A DNA stretch of 64,000 nucleotides from Trueperaceae bacterium (GTDB lineage Bacteria > Deinococcota > Deinococci > Deinococcales > Trueperaceae): assembly GCA_034521815.1 (NCBI GenBank), contig JAXHLW010000013.1:544001-608000 (forward strand), read 5' to 3'. The notes below the pieces were generated by a model. That model saw nothing but the letters and a program-made list of their open reading frames with translations. It was not told where the DNA came from and searched no databases. Of this stretch, positions 10,197 through 14,542 are shown in pieces; the stretch's first letter is position 1, and every line of letters starts with the position of its first letter. The position numbers and the translations under genes are program-made.

Positions 10197-11543
10197 CTAC
10201 GGCGCGCCGCGCGCCAGGTCGTTGAAGCGCACGTGAGCGCCGTGGAACTGCAGGTCGACCGCGCCGACCGGCCCGTTGCGCTGCTTGCCGATCAGGATCT
10301 CCGCGATGCCCTGCTTCTCGGAGTGGGGATCGTAGTACTCGTCGCGGTAGATGAACATCACCAGGTCGGCGTCCTGCTCGATCGCTCCCGACTCGCGCAG
10401 GTCGGACAGCATCGGCCGCTTGTTCGGCCGACTCTCGACCGCGCGCGACAGCTGCGAGAGCACCAGGACGGGCACGTCCAGCTCGCGAGCCAGCGCCTTC
10501 AGGCCGCGCGAGATGCTGCTGATCTCCTGCTGGCGGTTCTCGGAGCCGAAGCGGCCGGCGGTGTGACCCGACATCAGCTGCAGGTAGTCGACCACGATCA
10601 GCCCCAGGTCGTGCTCCGCCATCAGCCTTCGCGACCGGCTGCGCAGCTCCATCACCGTCATGTCGGCGTGATCGTCGATGAAGATCTTGGCCTCGCTCAT
10701 CCGTCCCGCGGTGTCGGCCAGGCGCTGGAAGTCGCGATCGGTGAGCTGACCGTTGCGGACACGGCTCATGTCGACCCGCGCCTCGCTGCAGATCATGCGC
10801 GTGACGAGCTGAACCCCCGACATCTCCAGACTGAACAGCCCGACCGTCTTCTTCTCGCGGAGCGCCACGTTCAGGGCGATCGACAACGCCAGCGCCGTCT
10901 TGCCCATGCTGGGCCGCGCAGCCAGGACGTTCAGGCTGGAGGGCTGCAGCCCGGCGGTCAGCTGGTCGAGCTCCTTGAATCCCGTTCGGATGCCCGAGAC
11001 CGGATTGGGGTTCGCGAACAGCTCGTTGATGTGAGCGAACGTCTCGGTGACCAGCTCGCTCATCGAGCCGAACCCGTCGGACCGCTTGCTGCTGGCCAGC
11101 TCGAAGATGGCCTTCTCGGAGGCGTCCAGCACCTCCTCGAGCGGCATCGACTGGTCGTACGCGGTCTGCATGATCTGTCCGCTAGCGGAGATCAGGTCCC
11201 TGAGCACCGCCTTCTCGGTGACGATGCGGGCGTAGCTCTCGGCGTACGCGGCGGTGGGCACGCCGTCGGCCAGGCCGATCAGGTACGGGACGTTGCCGAC
11301 CTCGTCGAGCTCGCTGCTCTGGCGCAGCTCCTCGGTGAGGGTGACGAGGTCGATCGGGTCTCCGCGATGGAACAGGCGCTCCATGCCCCGGAACACCTTG
11401 CGGTGTCCCTCCTTGTAGAAGTGCTCCGCGCGGAGCGTGCCCTCGAGGGTGGCGTACACCTCGTTGTCGAGAAGGATGCTGCCGAGCACGCTCTGCTCGG
11501 CGTCGAGGTTCTGCGGGGGGGTCCGGCTCTCCACGGCGGTCAT
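10197..11543 (-). CDS. dnaB: replicative DNA helicase
   Basis: AARPSMGKT, FSLEMS, VDYLQLM, SQLSRAVESR, DLRESGAIEQDAD, KQRNGP; no intein. Confidence 0.98.
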   Translation of the reverse strand: MTAVESRTPPQNLDAEQSVLGSILLDNEVYATLEGTLRAEHFYKEGHRKVFRGMERLFHRGDPIDLVTLTEELRQSSELDEVGNVPYLIGLADGVPTAAYAESYARIVTEKAVLRDLISASGQIMQTAYDQSMPLEEVLDASEKAIFELASSKRSDGFGSMSELVTETFAHINELFANPNPVSGIRTGFKELDQLTAGLQPSSLNVLAARPSMGKTALALSIALNVALREKKTVGLFSLEMSGVQLVTRMICSEARVDMSRVRNGQLTDRDFQRLADTAGRMSEAKIFIDDHADMTVMELRSRSRRLMAEHDLGLIVVDYLQLMSGHTAGRFGSENRQQEISSISRGLKALARELDVPVLVLSQLSRAVESRPNKRPMLSDLRESGAIEQDADLVMFIYRDEYYDPHSEKQGIAEILIGKQRNGPVGAVDLQFHGAHVRFNDLARGAP

Positions 11544-11626
11544 CGTACCTGCGCGGCGGTCGGGCGGGTCGGCGGCTGCGCGTCACGTACCCGGGCGCGC
11601 CGGGCCCGGCCGGTACACTGTCGACG

Positions 11627-13309
11627 ATGACGCCGCTCTGGATGGTCCTCGTGTCGCTGGTCGCAGGCTGGGCGATCGGCTCGGCGCCGCTGGGCGCGTG
11701 GTGGATCCGCCGTGCCGCGGGGCGCGATCCGCGCGACCTGAACCCGTCCCTGCTGGGCGTCGAGAACGTGTTCCGGCTGCTCGGACCGCCCGTCGCGGCG
11801 GTCGGCTTCATCCTCGACGTGCTCAAGGGCGCGGTGGCGGTGGTGATCGCGCCCGCGGCCGGCGCGGCGGCGGTGGGCGTCCTGGCGGGCCACGTCCTTC
11901 CGCCCCCCTGGCCCGGCGACGCGCGCGCCCCGCGAGGCCGCGGCAACGGCGTGCTGGCGGGGGCGCTGACGGCGCTGGTCGCTGCGGGCGACATGCCGTT
12001 CCTGGCGGCGGGCGCGGGGGCGGCCGTGTACGCCGCGGCGTTGGCGCAGTGGGGGTTCGCGACGCCGGCGACGCTGCTGGGGCTGCTGACGATGCTGATG
12101 TGGCCCGGTGCCCCCGTGGGCGTCTCCGCGGGCTGGCTGGCGCTGTTGACGGTGCGCGGCCTTCCGTCGCTGGCGCGCATCGCGGACGGCACCGAGCCAC
12201 GGCTGGGCGATCCTCCCCCGGTGCGGGGTCTGGCACCGGGCCGGGTGCGCGCGGCGTTCATGATCCATCCGATGACGCTGGACGACATCTGGCAGGTCCC
12301 GAGCCAGCGCTGGGTGCATCTCCTTCACCGGCGGGGCTGGCTGCCCGAGCCCGCGCTTCGGCGGGTCTTGCCGTGGCTGCGTCCCCAGCTCCACGGGATC
12401 GTGCGCGGCGTCGAGCTGGCCGACGGACGGACGCTGGAGGTGGTGCTGATCGGCGGTCCGATGCTTCCCGACCAGATCCGCGCCGACCCGGCGACGGCGA
12501 CCCGAATGGCGATCCGGGGCGCCCAGCTGGCCCGCGAGATGGGCGCCGAGGCGTTCGGTCTGGGCGCGTTCTGGTCCACGGTGGGCGACAAGGGACGGAG
12601 GGTCCAGGAGGCGGTGCCGGACCTGCCCGTCACGCACGGTGGCAGCTACACCGCCGCGACCGTCGGAGCGGCGATCCCCGGTCTGCTGGAGCGGTTCCGC
12701 GAGGAGGGCGGGACCTTGGCGCGCAGCACCGCCGCGGTCGTGGGCGCCAACGGCGTGGTCGCGTTCGGCGTCGCGCGCACGCTGGCGGAGCACGTCGGCG
12801 AGCTGATCCTGATCGGGACCGATCCGGTTCGCCTGGAACGGAGCGCCGCGACGCTACGGCACAAGCATCCGACGCTGGAGGTCCGCACCTCGACCGACCC
12901 GGCGGACGTGGCTGCGGCCGACCTGGTGTTCACGGCCACCAGCGATCCGGGCGTCGTCATCCGGCCGGAGCATGTCCGGCCGGGCGCCTGGATCTACGAT
13001 CTGGGTCGTCCGGCCGACGTCGATCCCGCCGTCCGCGAGGTGCCCGGCGTGCAGCTCGTGCCCGGCGGCGTGGTTCGGCCGCCCGGGCGAAGCGTGAGCG
13101 ACCTGGACCTGCACTTCGGCGACGGGCTGGTGCCCGCCTGCCTGGCGGAGACGATGATCCTGGCGGCCAGCGGCGAGCCGCACCGCGCCAAGACCGGTGG
13201 CACGGCCCGGGCGGCCGACGTGGCCTGGTTCCTGCAGGAGGGGCAGCGCCTGGGGTTCGAGATCGTGACGCGCGACGACCGGGTGGTGCGCGCCGAGGTC
13301 GTGCCTTGA
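11627..13309 (+). CDS. fusion of divergent PlsY-like acyltransferase domain and acyl-ACP-reductase-like NAD(P)-binding domain
   Basis: N-terminal GSAP, D.R...GVEN..R, DVLKG, AGH..P, GTEPR; C-terminal AFMIHP, GLGAFWS, THGGSYT, VVGANGVVA, DLGRP.D, ACLAET. Confidence 0.8.
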   Translation: MTPLWMVLVSLVAGWAIGSAPLGAWWIRRAAGRDPRDLNPSLLGVENVFRLLGPPVAAVGFILDVLKGAVAVVIAPAAGAAAVGVLAGHVLPPPWPGDARAPRGRGNGVLAGALTALVAAGDMPFLAAGAGAAVYAAALAQWGFATPATLLGLLTMLMWPGAPVGVSAGWLALLTVRGLPSLARIADGTEPRLGDPPPVRGLAPGRVRAAFMIHPMTLDDIWQVPSQRWVHLLHRRGWLPEPALRRVLPWLRPQLHGIVRGVELADGRTLEVVLIGGPMLPDQIRADPATATRMAIRGAQLAREMGAEAFGLGAFWSTVGDKGRRVQEAVPDLPVTHGGSYTAATVGAAIPGLLERFREEGGTLARSTAAVVGANGVVAFGVARTLAEHVGELILIGTDPVRLERSAATLRHKHPTLEVRTSTDPADVAAADLVFTATSDPGVVIRPEHVRPGAWIYDLGRPADVDPAVREVPGVQLVPGGVVRPPGRSVSDLDLHFGDGLVPACLAETMILAASGEPHRAKTGGTARAADVAWFLQEGQRLGFEIVTRDDRVVRAEVVP

Positions 13310-13349: not shown

Positions 13350-14129
13350 ATGAAAGCGTTCCGGTTCGCCGGCGATCTGGAGGCCGATCCTCCGGCGGCG
13401 GCCGCGCTGTGGGCGGCGGGGTGCCGCGGGATGCAGCAGGAGGGCGAGGAGATCGTCGCCTGGTTCGACGACGAGCGGGCGCTGCCGGTGCGCGGCCGCT
13501 GGGAGGAGGCGGACGACACCGACTGGGTGGCCAGCTACTTCGCCGGCCTGAAGCCGGTGCGGCTCACCACCTTGGTGGTCGCGCCCACCCACGCGGAGGT
13601 GGCGCTGACGGCGGGGCAGAAGCCGCTGTGGCTGGATCCCGGCATGGCGTTCGGCACCGGCCACCACGAGACGACGCGCATGGCGCTGTCGCGACTGGAA
13701 CGGGCGGAGCTGACCGGAGCACGCGTGCTGGACGTCGGGGCGGGGTCGGGGATCCTGGCCATCGCGGCGGACCTGTTGGGCGCGGCGTCGGCGCTGGGTG
13801 TCGACGTCGATCCTGCGACGCTGCCGGTGGCCGCGGAGAACGCCCGGCTGAACAGGTCGCGGGCACGTTTCGAGCTGGCCACCGTGGACCGGGCGCGACC
13901 CGAGCAGCGCTGCGACGTGCTGGTCGCGAACCTGTTCGCCGAGCTCCATGCCGAGCTCGCCGGCGAGTACGCGGCGGTGCTCGCACCGGGAGGCGCAGCG
14001 TTTCTGACGGGCATCCTGGACGATCGGGCCGACCTGGTCGAGGCGGCGCTGCCGGCCTCGCTGCGCCTGCTGGCCAGCGAGGCCGACGGCCCGTGGCGCC
14101 TGATGGCGCTGCAGCGGGTCGGATCGTGA
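13350..14129 (+). CDS. prmA: ribosomal protein L11 methyltransferase
   Basis: DPGMAFGTGHHETT, VLDVGAGSGILAI, VANL, GIL. Confidence 0.95.
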   Translation: MKAFRFAGDLEADPPAAAALWAAGCRGMQQEGEEIVAWFDDERALPVRGRWEEADDTDWVASYFAGLKPVRLTTLVVAPTHAEVALTAGQKPLWLDPGMAFGTGHHETTRMALSRLERAELTGARVLDVGAGSGILAIAADLLGAASALGVDVDPATLPVAAENARLNRSRARFELATVDRARPEQRCDVLVANLFAELHAELAGEYAAVLAPGGAAFLTGILDDRADLVEAALPASLRLLASEADGPWRLMALQRVGS

Positions 14130-14542
14130 GGTCGCACGTGGGCAGGACCGTGGCACGCTGGCTGGCCCTGGCGCTGGTGGCGGCCAGCTCCGCCTGCACG
14201 CCGCTGTACCTTCCGCCGGTCCCGCAGCAGCTGCCCACGCTGGAGACGCGCCTCCGCTTGCGCGATGTGCGCGTCGACCGGCTGGGCGGCCAGCCTGCGC
14301 TGGCGTTCGTCGCTGCCGAGGTGCCCACGCCGGGGTGGGCGGCCGTGCAGTGGTTCCCGCCCAGCGGGGGCGAGGTGGCGTCGGCCAGCGTGTGGCTGGA
14401 CGAAGCGTCGCTGGGCAGGGTGACGCGCGTTCCGTTCCCGGACGACGTCGCCCGCGAGCGTCCCGGCCGCTGGCGGGCGGTGCTGTCGTTCGGCGACCGC
14501 ATCGTCCGTCAGCTCGAATGGGACGAGCCCGCCGGACCGTAG
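14126..14542 (+). CDS. putative lipoprotein
   Basis: GTG overlaps prmA stop; hydrophobic stretch with SSAC lipobox; beta-rich body. Confidence 0.7.
   Translation: MRSHVGRTVARWLALALVAASSACTPLYLPPVPQQLPTLETRLRLRDVRVDRLGGQPALAFVAAEVPTPGWAAVQWFPPSGGEVASASVWLDEASLGRVTRVPFPDDVARERPGRWRAVLSFGDRIVRQLEWDEPAGP

Follow-up and report, generated by a model that had tools for sequence, protein, structure and literature searches.

A PlsY-like membrane domain fused to an acyl-ACP reductase-like domain in Deinococcota—a candidate membrane fatty-acyl reductase with a remodeled acyltransferase site

Gene and domain architecture

We examined a 64,000-nucleotide stretch of DNA from a Trueperaceae bacterium (Deinococcota; GenBank assembly GCA_034521815.1, contig JAXHLW010000013.1, positions 544,001 to 608,000 of the forward strand; hereafter the window), with emphasis on a gene that encodes a PlsY-like membrane domain followed by a domain resembling cyanobacterial acyl-acyl carrier protein (ACP) reductase (AAR). 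The gene occupies positions 11627..13309 of the plus strand as a single-frame open reading frame (ORF) of 560 amino acids, beginning at the first start codon of its frame. The corresponding protein in the source annotation (P0013) has 403 amino acids—70% of the ORF—and is apparently shortened, with most of the PlsY-like domain seemingly missing from the source gene call. Since the N-terminus of the 560-residue protein aligns with, and is conserved in, 15 orthologs, we adopted the longer version as the better gene model.

The N-terminal PlsY-family membrane domain covers residues 1-200 (11627..12226, plus strand), while the AAR-like domain extends over residues 205-552 (12239..13282, plus strand). 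The Pfam family PF02660 (G3P_acyltransf) matched residues 14-159 with 65.4 bits against a cut-off of 24.1, PF01488 gave a weak Rossmann match (28.9 bits), and the PlsY equivalog TIGR00023 remained below its cut-off (32.5 vs. 137.2 bits). The best NCBIfam match of the C-terminal half was the N-terminal, reductase part of PigE, at 85 bits and far below the cut-off for the whole protein. When a profile of 16 orthologs was compared with PDB sequences, it recovered the PlsY of Aquifex aeolicus (aaPlsY, 5xj5; E 2e-22), AAR (6jzu; E 9e-17), PigE (4ppm; E 7e-15) and the terminal amidation domain (TAD) of the carmabin pathway (9e4x; E 8e-5). An AlphaFold2 model of the 560-residue protein (predicted local distance difference test score 86, predicted template modeling score 0.84) was aligned by Foldseek to PlsY 5xj7 with a template modeling (TM) score of 0.75 and a root-mean-square deviation of 3.1 over 201 columns, reproducing the seven-helix fold, and to AAR 6jzz/6jzu with E-values of 4e-17 to 9e-17 and a TM score of 0.72; the carmabin TAD was the second-best fold family (E 7e-14). 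Among the 16 orthologs, the mean pairwise identity of the N-domain was 0.42 and that of the C-domain 0.60, and a search of the ESM Atlas returned only the protein's own Deinococcota clusters. The two-domain architecture had been proposed in an earlier note, written from the sequence alone, and the structural comparison of the two halves bears it out. All the motif strings quoted there are present, i.e., NPSLLGVEN (39-47), RGRG (103-106), GLPS (178-181) and RIADGTEP (184-191) in the PlsY-like domain, and FMIHP (211-215), GLGAFWS (311-317), THGGSYT (336-342), VVGANGVVA (371-379) and ACLAET (504-509) in the C-terminal half.

The remodeled PlsY-like site

In aaPlsY, the phosphate of glycerol 3-phosphate (G3P) is bound by Ser35, Arg45, the Lys104 side chain and Asn180, and its 2-OH by Ser142 and His177; the acyl-phosphate sits in a 'phosphate hole' that the backbone amides of Lys104-Ala107 form together with the side chain of His92, and Thr41 binds the acyl carbonyl (PMC5700162). 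We mapped these columns, that of Ser142 not reliably, via the canonical PlsY of the same genome, numbered as in aaPlsY. The mapping places NPSLLGVEN opposite GSGNxGATN, RGRG opposite GGKG and GLPS opposite HxxN, exactly as the earlier note had assigned them, and leaves P40, R105, G178 and S181 in the places of Ser35, Lys104, His177 and Asn180—the standard G3P-binding residues are lost. The note was likewise correct in that GLPS replaces the HxxN of motif 3, but not in calling this motif catalytic, as His177 and Asn180 bind G3P (PMC5700162).

The altered positions cluster in three segments. The motif 1 region (NPSLLGVENVFR, residues 39-50, 11741..11776, plus strand) has P40 for Ser35, E46 for Thr41 and R50 for Arg45; the 'phosphate hole' of loop 3 reads RGRGNG for GGKGVA (residues 103-108, 11933..11950, plus strand); and the motif 3 region (GLPSLARIADGTEP, residues 178-191, 12158..12199, plus strand) keeps R184 and E190, next to the replacements G178 and S181. 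H89 (11891..11893, plus strand) is the equivalent of His92, which contacts the phosphate of the acyl-phosphate in aaPlsY.

We then counted residues across 135 Deinococcota-type sequences (the protein itself, 15 orthologs and 119 of 120 listed homologs of 540-640 amino acids) and, for comparison, 120 Armatimonadota-type sequences, for a total of 255 members of the altered clade. The Thr41 column holds Glu in 135/135 Deinococcota-type sequences, and the Gly102 column holds Arg in all of them as well as in 119 of the 120 Armatimonadota-type sequences (254/255 overall). Arg replaces Lys104 in 134/135 (Lys in the remaining one) and Asn replaces Val106 in 130/135, while the Ser35 column is occupied by Pro (82), Ala (51), Val (1) and Ser (1). 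The length of loop 3 is the same as in PlsY despite these substitutions, Gly105 is found in 135/135 sequences, and His92 is kept throughout (135/135 and 120/120). Arg183 and Glu189 were each retained in 134/135 and Arg45 in 124/135, the protein of the window included. The columns for His177 (Gln 57, His 40, Gly 21, Leu 7, Tyr 4, Phe 3) and Asn180 (Ala 73, Ser 48, Asn 8, Gly 6) are variable, and about 51 of the 120 Armatimonadota-type sequences still keep Ser35, Thr41 and Asn42. Because the replacements in the G3P clamp are fixed in the Deinococcota type—E46 in 135/135, R103 in 135/135 and R105 in 134/135—the alignment indicates that the PlsY-like site is conserved and remodeled rather than decaying, with His92, Gly105 and the loop length of the acyl-phosphate pocket kept.

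The AAR-like domain

AAR follows a ping-pong thioester mechanism in which an acyl tunnel passes the aldehyde to a docked partner; its dinucleotide loop recognizes the cofactor, and the ADP moiety of coenzyme A (CoA) shares one cleft with NADPH (PMC7089970). The earlier note had claimed the catalytic Cys and the dinucleotide loop of AAR for the C-terminal half, and both were located in the alignment of the 16 orthologs. The loop, VVGANGVVAFG (residues 371-381, 12737..12769, plus strand), aligns with AAR 162-GATGDIG-168 and fits the pattern GX(1-3)GX(1-2)G; G373, A374, N375, G376, V377, V378 and G381 are invariant in 16/16 orthologs, and position 379, the third of the pattern, is Ala or Gly. C505 (13139..13141, plus strand) falls in the column of AAR Cys294, which carries the acyl-enzyme thioester in AAR, and is invariant in 16/16 orthologs. 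A Cys is also found in this column in all 35 fused proteins printed in a wider comparison, and the AAR C294S mutant chain (6jzz) has Ser there. In addition, the TxGG(A/S)YTA segment of the orthologs aligns with TTGNTHTA of AAR, and a by-eye reading of the alignment places the nearly invariant R402 in the column of AAR R193, one of three arginines at the NADPH 2'-phosphate that are only partly kept. The C-domain is most economically read as an acyl reductase of the thioester type.

Distribution and evolutionary origin

Of the 301 Deinococcota genomes sampled, 298, spread over all five families, gave a full-length match to the fusion; the three genomes with no fusion match are 92-100% complete. 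Some genomes in our samples are unpublished, namely G252 (Deinococcota) and G315 and G320 (Armatimonadota). The source genome (G000) has PlsX and three PF02660 genes—a canonical PlsY (158 bits), a second paralog (109 bits) and the fusion (68 bits). The separate canonical plsY, for which the earlier note had recommended a check, is thus present in the source genome, as it is in 5/5 other near-complete Deinococcota genomes (G014, G077, G025, G029 and G256), where it scored 148-176 bits and the fusion 90-102 bits on PF02660. The fusion was also the only AAR-like gene in the 5/5 Deinococcota genomes searched for one. Deinococcota genomes carry 3-4 PF02660 paralogs, including one or two further short PlsY-like genes, and in the source genome a PF02660 paralog region beyond the canonical PlsY and the fusion lies at C13:1091330-1091872.

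The restriction to one lineage that the earlier note had assumed did not survive a broader search, since the fusion family also occurs in Armatimonadota and in some Bacillota metagenome-assembled genomes (MAGs). Searching 1.84 billion representatives gave 378 matches at E <=1e-30; the close relatives (at least 596 bits) include Truepera radiovictrix WP_013177830.1 and a Bacillota MAG, and further Armatimonadota as well as three Bacillota/Firmicutes MAG clusters are among the matches listed. A genome scan found 221 relatives, and the best 80 of these, which were kept, comprise as non-Deinococcota members Armatimonadota (including Ca. Fervidifonticultor and Ca. Nitrosymbiomonas), one Bacillota MAG, three 'Actinomycetota/Actinomycetes' MAGs and one MAG labelled Thermaerobacter. 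The locus L049 (DYGY01000002.1), titled Thermaerobacter marianensis, has 43% G+C over 15.7 kb; as Thermaerobacter is a genus of high G+C, this label is doubtful.

We further sampled 73 Armatimonadota genomes passing a completeness filter of at least 85%, among which PlsX was found in 55 and the full-length fusion in 22. PlsX was not found in 12/22 fusion-bearing vs. 6/51 fusion-less genomes, although these 12 are MAGs admitted by the same filter and, being probably close kin, should not be taken as independent. In 10 of the 12, another PlsY-like match was lacking as well (G303 and G304 were checked with PF02660), and the five PlsX-less fusion genomes that we examined contain only 1-4 small PlsC-like PF01553 genes. 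The fused PlsY of G305, which is near-canonical (153 bits), is the only PF02660 match of that genome, whereas Ser35 and Arg45 are absent from the fusions of G303 and G304, the sequences of which we read. A stand-alone AAR-like gene is present in 46 or 47 of the 51 fusion-less genomes, mostly alongside PlsX. Searches for PlsX and for a stand-alone PlsY both came up empty in G303, G304, G306, G307, G310, G317, G318, G320, G321 and G374; in these ten MAGs, the fusion is the only PlsY-family gene. Another member of the phylum, G316, contains two fragments of the fusion's C-domain (C94:19025-19642 and C70:1570-2103) with two in-frame TGA codons each, which represent either broken copies or a recoding issue.

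More distant full-length fusions (150-290 bits) keep the canonical GSGN, GGK and HxxN motifs and score 134-142 bits on PF02660; one of them comes from a Candidatus Berkelbacteria MAG (MEI8061564.1). Their clamp residues are kept in 16-17 of 17 sequences per column, except for Arg45 (Arg 10, Lys 4). In a tree of the C-domain (136 rows, with 29 rows covering fewer than 280 profile positions dropped; IQ-TREE quick search, LG+G4, midpoint root, support by the Shimodaira-Hasegawa-like approximate likelihood-ratio test [SH-aLRT] only), the altered-PlsY clade (27 rows, support 99) is sister to the main clade of canonical-PlsY fusions (19 rows, support 99). The node joining the two has an SH-aLRT value of 99, and six other canonical fusions are placed elsewhere. 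The tree suggests that one old PlsY-AAR-like fusion was likely followed by remodeling of the PlsY site. Other partners of the AAR-like domain are PlsC-like acyltransferases (3 cases), SRPBCC lipid-binding domains (8 cases) and, in one protein (P0246), a class-III aminotransferase together with an AMP-binding domain.

Proposed function and alternative explanations

The major phospholipid of Thermus and Meiothermus is a 2'-O-(1,2-diacyl-sn-glycero-3-phospho)-3'-O-(alpha-N-acetylglucosaminyl)-N-glyceroyl alkylamine, which is related to the Deinococcus lipid and is called a chemical marker of the lineage; its amide joins glyceric acid to the alkylamine, and long-chain diols are minor (PMC3035268). 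A 2022 paper states of the enzymes behind the third chain that they 'have not been identified' (PMC9636437). These sources agree with the earlier note, which had pointed to alkylamine- and diol-containing lipids in Deinococcota. Elsewhere, an AAR-like domain combined with a class-III transaminase takes a thioester to an amine, as shown or proposed for PigE, PtTAmH and fusions in Thermaerobacter and Thermincola (PMC8341465, PMC10829540). Literature searches returned no paper describing the PlsY-AAR-like fusion.

Our best reading is that the protein is a bifunctional integral-membrane lipid enzyme and not a standard G3P acyltransferase. Our leading, if tentative, proposal is that it acts as a membrane fatty-acyl reductase making an aldehyde, possibly for the alkylamine of the Deinococcota phosphoglycolipid. 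The view of the earlier note, a membrane acyl reductase distinct from standard PlsY, stands as far as the altered G3P site, the separate PlsY and the Cys and dinucleotide loop are concerned; the occurrence of the family outside Deinococcota speaks against its being lineage-specific. Starting from the observed architecture, residue conservation, distribution and separate PlsX and PlsY, we infer the chemistry at every step. In the cytoplasmic AAR-like domain, Cys505 would first form a thioester with a fatty acyl group donated by acyl-ACP or acyl-CoA, and NAD(P)H bound at the GANGVV(A/G)FG loop would reduce it, releasing a fatty aldehyde. The PlsY-derived seven-helix domain would tether the reductase and receive or present the lipid at the membrane surface, much as AAR hands its aldehyde through the acyl tunnel to a docked partner. 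Given that H89 and the phosphate-hole loop are kept while E46, R103 and R105 were gained, this domain may well still work, but with a new specificity for the head group. The aldehyde could then undergo transamination by an unlinked enzyme to give the alkylamine 'third chain' of the phosphatidyl-N-glyceroyl-alkylamine glycolipid, which, by analogy with the transaminase systems, would be its most likely use in Deinococcota.

Several observations weigh against a reductase that serves the alkylamine lipid. The protein scores 31.9 bits on the AcACP_reductase model TIGR04058, the cut-off of which is 449.7. By eye, the column of AAR R189 holds T398 in the protein (Arg in most orthologs) and that of R314 is unconserved, such that the arginines contacting the NADPH 2'-phosphate are only partly kept; and as the ADP of CoA and NADPH share one cleft in AAR, a conserved loop is no proof of redox chemistry. 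Gene context offers little encouragement either. We scanned the loci of 11 orthologs from Deinococcota (95 ORFs) and of 12 from outside the phylum (61 ORFs), and in these 23 loci there was no aminotransferase within about 4 kb of the fusion gene and no conserved lipid-head gene next to it; the neighbors are housekeeping genes, i.e., dnaB and prmA, infC-rplT, or SHMT and glnA. The family is equally common in Armatimonadota, a phylum for which we met no report of alkylamine lipids. N-glyceroyl-alkylamine lipids were reportedly described in Bacillota by Bale et al. in 2025, and Moorella thermoacetica has a table row on such lipids (PMC13274423); cultured, named Bacillota, however, are absent from the 120 matches listed. 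Finally, the PlsY of the sister clade is canonical, an argument that PlsY chemistry, and not just a membrane address, is what the two domains have in common. PF07993, which covers other fatty-acyl reductases, gave only weak partial matches of at most 48 bits, and matches occurred in 14/14 control genomes, so that this profile speaks neither for nor against the proposal.

The canonical PlsY of the sister clade points to a coupling of the two domains through acyl-phosphate, the main rival, which we regard as possible but doubtful, and which can take two forms. In one, the PlsY-like domain would capture acyl-phosphate and pass the acyl group to Cys505 for reduction by NAD(P)H, as an acyl-phosphate reductase resembling aspartate-semialdehyde dehydrogenase; in the other, Cys505 would be loaded from acyl-ACP or acyl-CoA and phosphate would cleave the thioester, so that acyl-phosphate arises in place and the PlsY-like site acylates G3P or a new acceptor without PlsX. 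His92 and the length of the phosphate-hole loop are kept in 255/255 sequences while the G3P clamp is lost, and the sister position of the canonical-PlsY fusions (SH-aLRT 99), the shared cleft for CoA and NADPH in AAR (PMC7089970), the fused PlsY of G305 and the scarcity of PlsX, of other PlsY-like genes and of acyltransferases beyond small PlsC-like ones in fusion-bearing Armatimonadota all fit such a coupling. The PlsX pattern in particular favors a self-sufficient acyl-phosphate route in that Armatimonadota clade. Yet the fusion-less genomes of the phylum mostly pair a stand-alone AAR-like gene with PlsX, so the AAR-like domain cannot generally be a PlsX substitute; the idea of the fusion as such a substitute is weakened accordingly, and we retain it as a rival rather than as the lead. 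PlsX, canonical PlsY and the fusion also coexist in Deinococcota, the relevant Armatimonadota genomes are of limited independence, and the fusions of G303 and G304 lack Ser35 and Arg45, on which G3P acylation depends. Moreover, we know of no AAR-family member that uses or makes acyl-phosphate, although no search was aimed at this point.

A non-reductive role for the C-domain appears unlikely. Here, the Cys thioester would pass its acyl group to a nitrogen or oxygen nucleophile, in the manner proposed for TADs, and the PlsY-like domain would serve as an anchor or supply the acceptor. The carmabin TAD is indeed the second-best fold match (E 7e-14, with a profile match to 9e4x at E 8e-5) and shares the Cys and the NAD site, its chemistry being described as unresolved in a preprint (bioRxiv 10.1101/2024.10.28.620694); the hallmark lipid, in turn, contains an amide (PMC3035268). 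AAR and PigE, however, match better than the TAD, TADs are located at the ends of nonribosomal peptide synthetases (NRPSs), unlike the fusion protein, and the lipid amide joins glyceric acid to the alkylamine rather than a fatty acyl group to an amine. Least probable of the readings considered is an ordinary PlsY with an accessory or regulatory domain, as implied by the name 'glycerol-3-phosphate acyltransferase' that NCBI and the source annotation give to the protein. PF02660 is above its cut-off, and nearly all PlsY residues are kept in about 51/120 Armatimonadota members, but in the 560-residue protein Ser35, Thr41, Lys104, His177 and Asn180 are all replaced—sites where single mutations cost aaPlsY 75-95% of its activity (PMC5700162)—in addition to the sub-threshold TIGR00023 score and the canonical PlsY encoded by the same genome.

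Gene neighborhood and a conserved partner protein

The fusion gene lies between dnaB (10197-11543, minus strand), from which it is separated by a divergent intergenic region of 83 bp (11544..11626), and a PrmA-like methyltransferase gene (13350-14129, plus strand), in a gene order repeated in 4 Trueperaceae loci. Downstream of prmA, a frame tail at 14130-14542 (plus strand) resembles a short lipoprotein, with a signal-like stretch ending in A-S-S-A-C. The sole non-housekeeping neighbor is a PLDc_2 (phospholipase-D-like transferase) protein of about 520 amino acids near the fusion in 2/2 Deinococcus loci (L025:7299-8858, minus strand; L026:11831-13381, plus strand), one or two genes away; it could represent a phosphatidyl-transfer step. 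In L026, a GDPD phosphodiesterase gene sits between the PLDc_2 gene and the fusion. In loci of the Thermaceae type (L028:8846-9313, L029:10378-10869 and L030:8776-9240), the fusion comes after infC-rpmI-rplT and a gene for a small membrane protein of PF06695 ('small multidrug export'), a conserved synteny. It is followed by a PNP_UDP_1 gene in L028 and L030, and in L030 by a gene of menaquinone synthesis (futalosine route) as well.

In 10 Armatimonadota loci, the stand-alone AAR-like gene is apparently preceded by an ORF of about 290-345 amino acids, and in several of them the stop and start codons of the two genes overlap or abut. Two members of this family, at L117:5054-6001 and L122:5065-6027, lie directly upstream of stand-alone AAR-like genes. 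One representative, P0405, is 42% identical over 305 residues (E 1e-77) to the N-terminal half of a 700-residue protein that carries an AAR-like domain at its C-terminus. The family has one homolog in each of 5/5 genomes tried, including the source genome (G000:C1:305761-306657, minus strand), and was found in 99 of 101 Deinococcota genomes (100 at >=90% completeness, plus the source genome at 83.5%). The ORFs gave no match in Pfam at E up to 10 (5 loci scanned) or in NCBIfam at E up to 0.01 (4 loci), and P0405 hit nothing better than E 0.49 among PDB sequences. Its AlphaFold2 model (predicted local distance difference test score 85) returned weak two-lobe alpha/beta matches, with TM scores of 0.35-0.44, including AAR and Glu/Leu dehydrogenases; the Atlas lists the family under the name 'putative quinate 5-dehydrogenase' and has clusters of it from Deinococcota, Chloroflexota and Bacillota. 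We consider it very likely that this protein of about 300 residues works with the AAR-like domain.

A bolder reading, which we hold to be highly improbable, is that the fusion and this partner assemble the N-glyceroyl-alkylamine core of the phosphoglycolipid of Deinococcus-Thermus. The fatty aldehyde that becomes the alkylamine would come from the AAR-like domain. The PlsY site, in turn, would have exchanged a lipid acyl-phosphate and soluble G3P for a lipid amine and a soluble acyl-phosphate, namely a phosphoglyceroyl phosphate (1,3-bisphosphoglycerate, for instance), and would form the amide bond. The additional phosphate would be bound by the new Arg103 and Arg105, with the invariant Glu46 taking a proton from the amine. 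If true, this would make the protein a PlsY-fold amide synthase and solve a biosynthesis the enzymes of which were called unidentified in 2022 (PMC9636437).

Returning to the membrane fatty-acyl reductase, its near-universal presence in Deinococcota, as the only AAR-family gene in the genomes checked, makes the fusion a knock-out target in tractable Thermus and Deinococcus strains. The pathway by which the main phospholipid in Thermus, Meiothermus and Deinococcus acquires its alkylamine 'third chain' thereby becomes testable. If confirmed, the fusion would be the first neo-functionalized PlsY, with the head-group site changed and the acyl-phosphate pocket kept. Hundreds of database entries bear the names 'glycerol-3-phosphate acyltransferase' or 'predicted amino acid dehydrogenase', both probably wrong for the Deinococcota type. 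In a broader context, the near-universal occurrence of both the AAR-like gene and its partner in Armatimonadota hints at an unrecognized lipid step in several Terrabacteria phyla.

Comparison with known systems

Compared with Aquifex aeolicus PlsY (5XJ5-5XJ9), the fusion shares the seven-helix fold, LDxxKG and the GH containing His92, the length of loop 3 together with its Gly105, and the motif 3 residues Arg183 and Glu189. It differs in the G3P clamp, where Ser35 became Pro or Ala, Lys104 became Arg and His177 and Asn180 are variable, in the invariant replacements of Thr41 by Glu and Gly102 by Arg, in the additional cytoplasmic domain of 350 residues and in the presence of a separate canonical PlsY in the same genomes. 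Cyanobacterial AAR (6JZQ/6JZU) has the same three-part fold, with the Cys column, the dinucleotide loop and TxGG(A/S)YTA aligned, at about 20% identity; unlike this soluble enzyme, the fusion is membrane-tethered, comes without the ADO partner, lies far below the TIGR04058 cut-off and retains the 2'-phosphate arginines in part.

The PigE/TamH/TAm-AAR group, in which acyl thioesters are converted into amines through aldehydes (PMC8341465, PMC10829540), contributes the best NCBIfam match through the reductase part of PigE, at 85 bits for the fusion and 227 bits for a stand-alone Armatimonadota relative. These enzymes carry a class-III aminotransferase domain, which the fusion lacks both in itself and within about 4 kb in the 23 loci of relatives scanned; its partner domain has a membrane acyltransferase fold instead. 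The carmabin TAD (9E4S-9E56) likewise has an AAR-like fold in which an invariant Cys lies beside NAD, but it is NAD-specific, differs in details of the N-lobe and matches weakly at the sequence level in our profile search. It forms the C-terminus of an NRPS module, whereas the N-terminal partner in the fusion is PlsY-like and the neighbors are housekeeping genes. A further parallel is provided by the fusions of a canonical PlsY with an AAR-like domain, e.g., MEI8061564.1. These differ in keeping GSGN, GGK and HxxN and in their higher PF02660 scores (134-142 vs. 65 bits), while displaying the same domain order and length and forming the sister clade in the C-domain tree.

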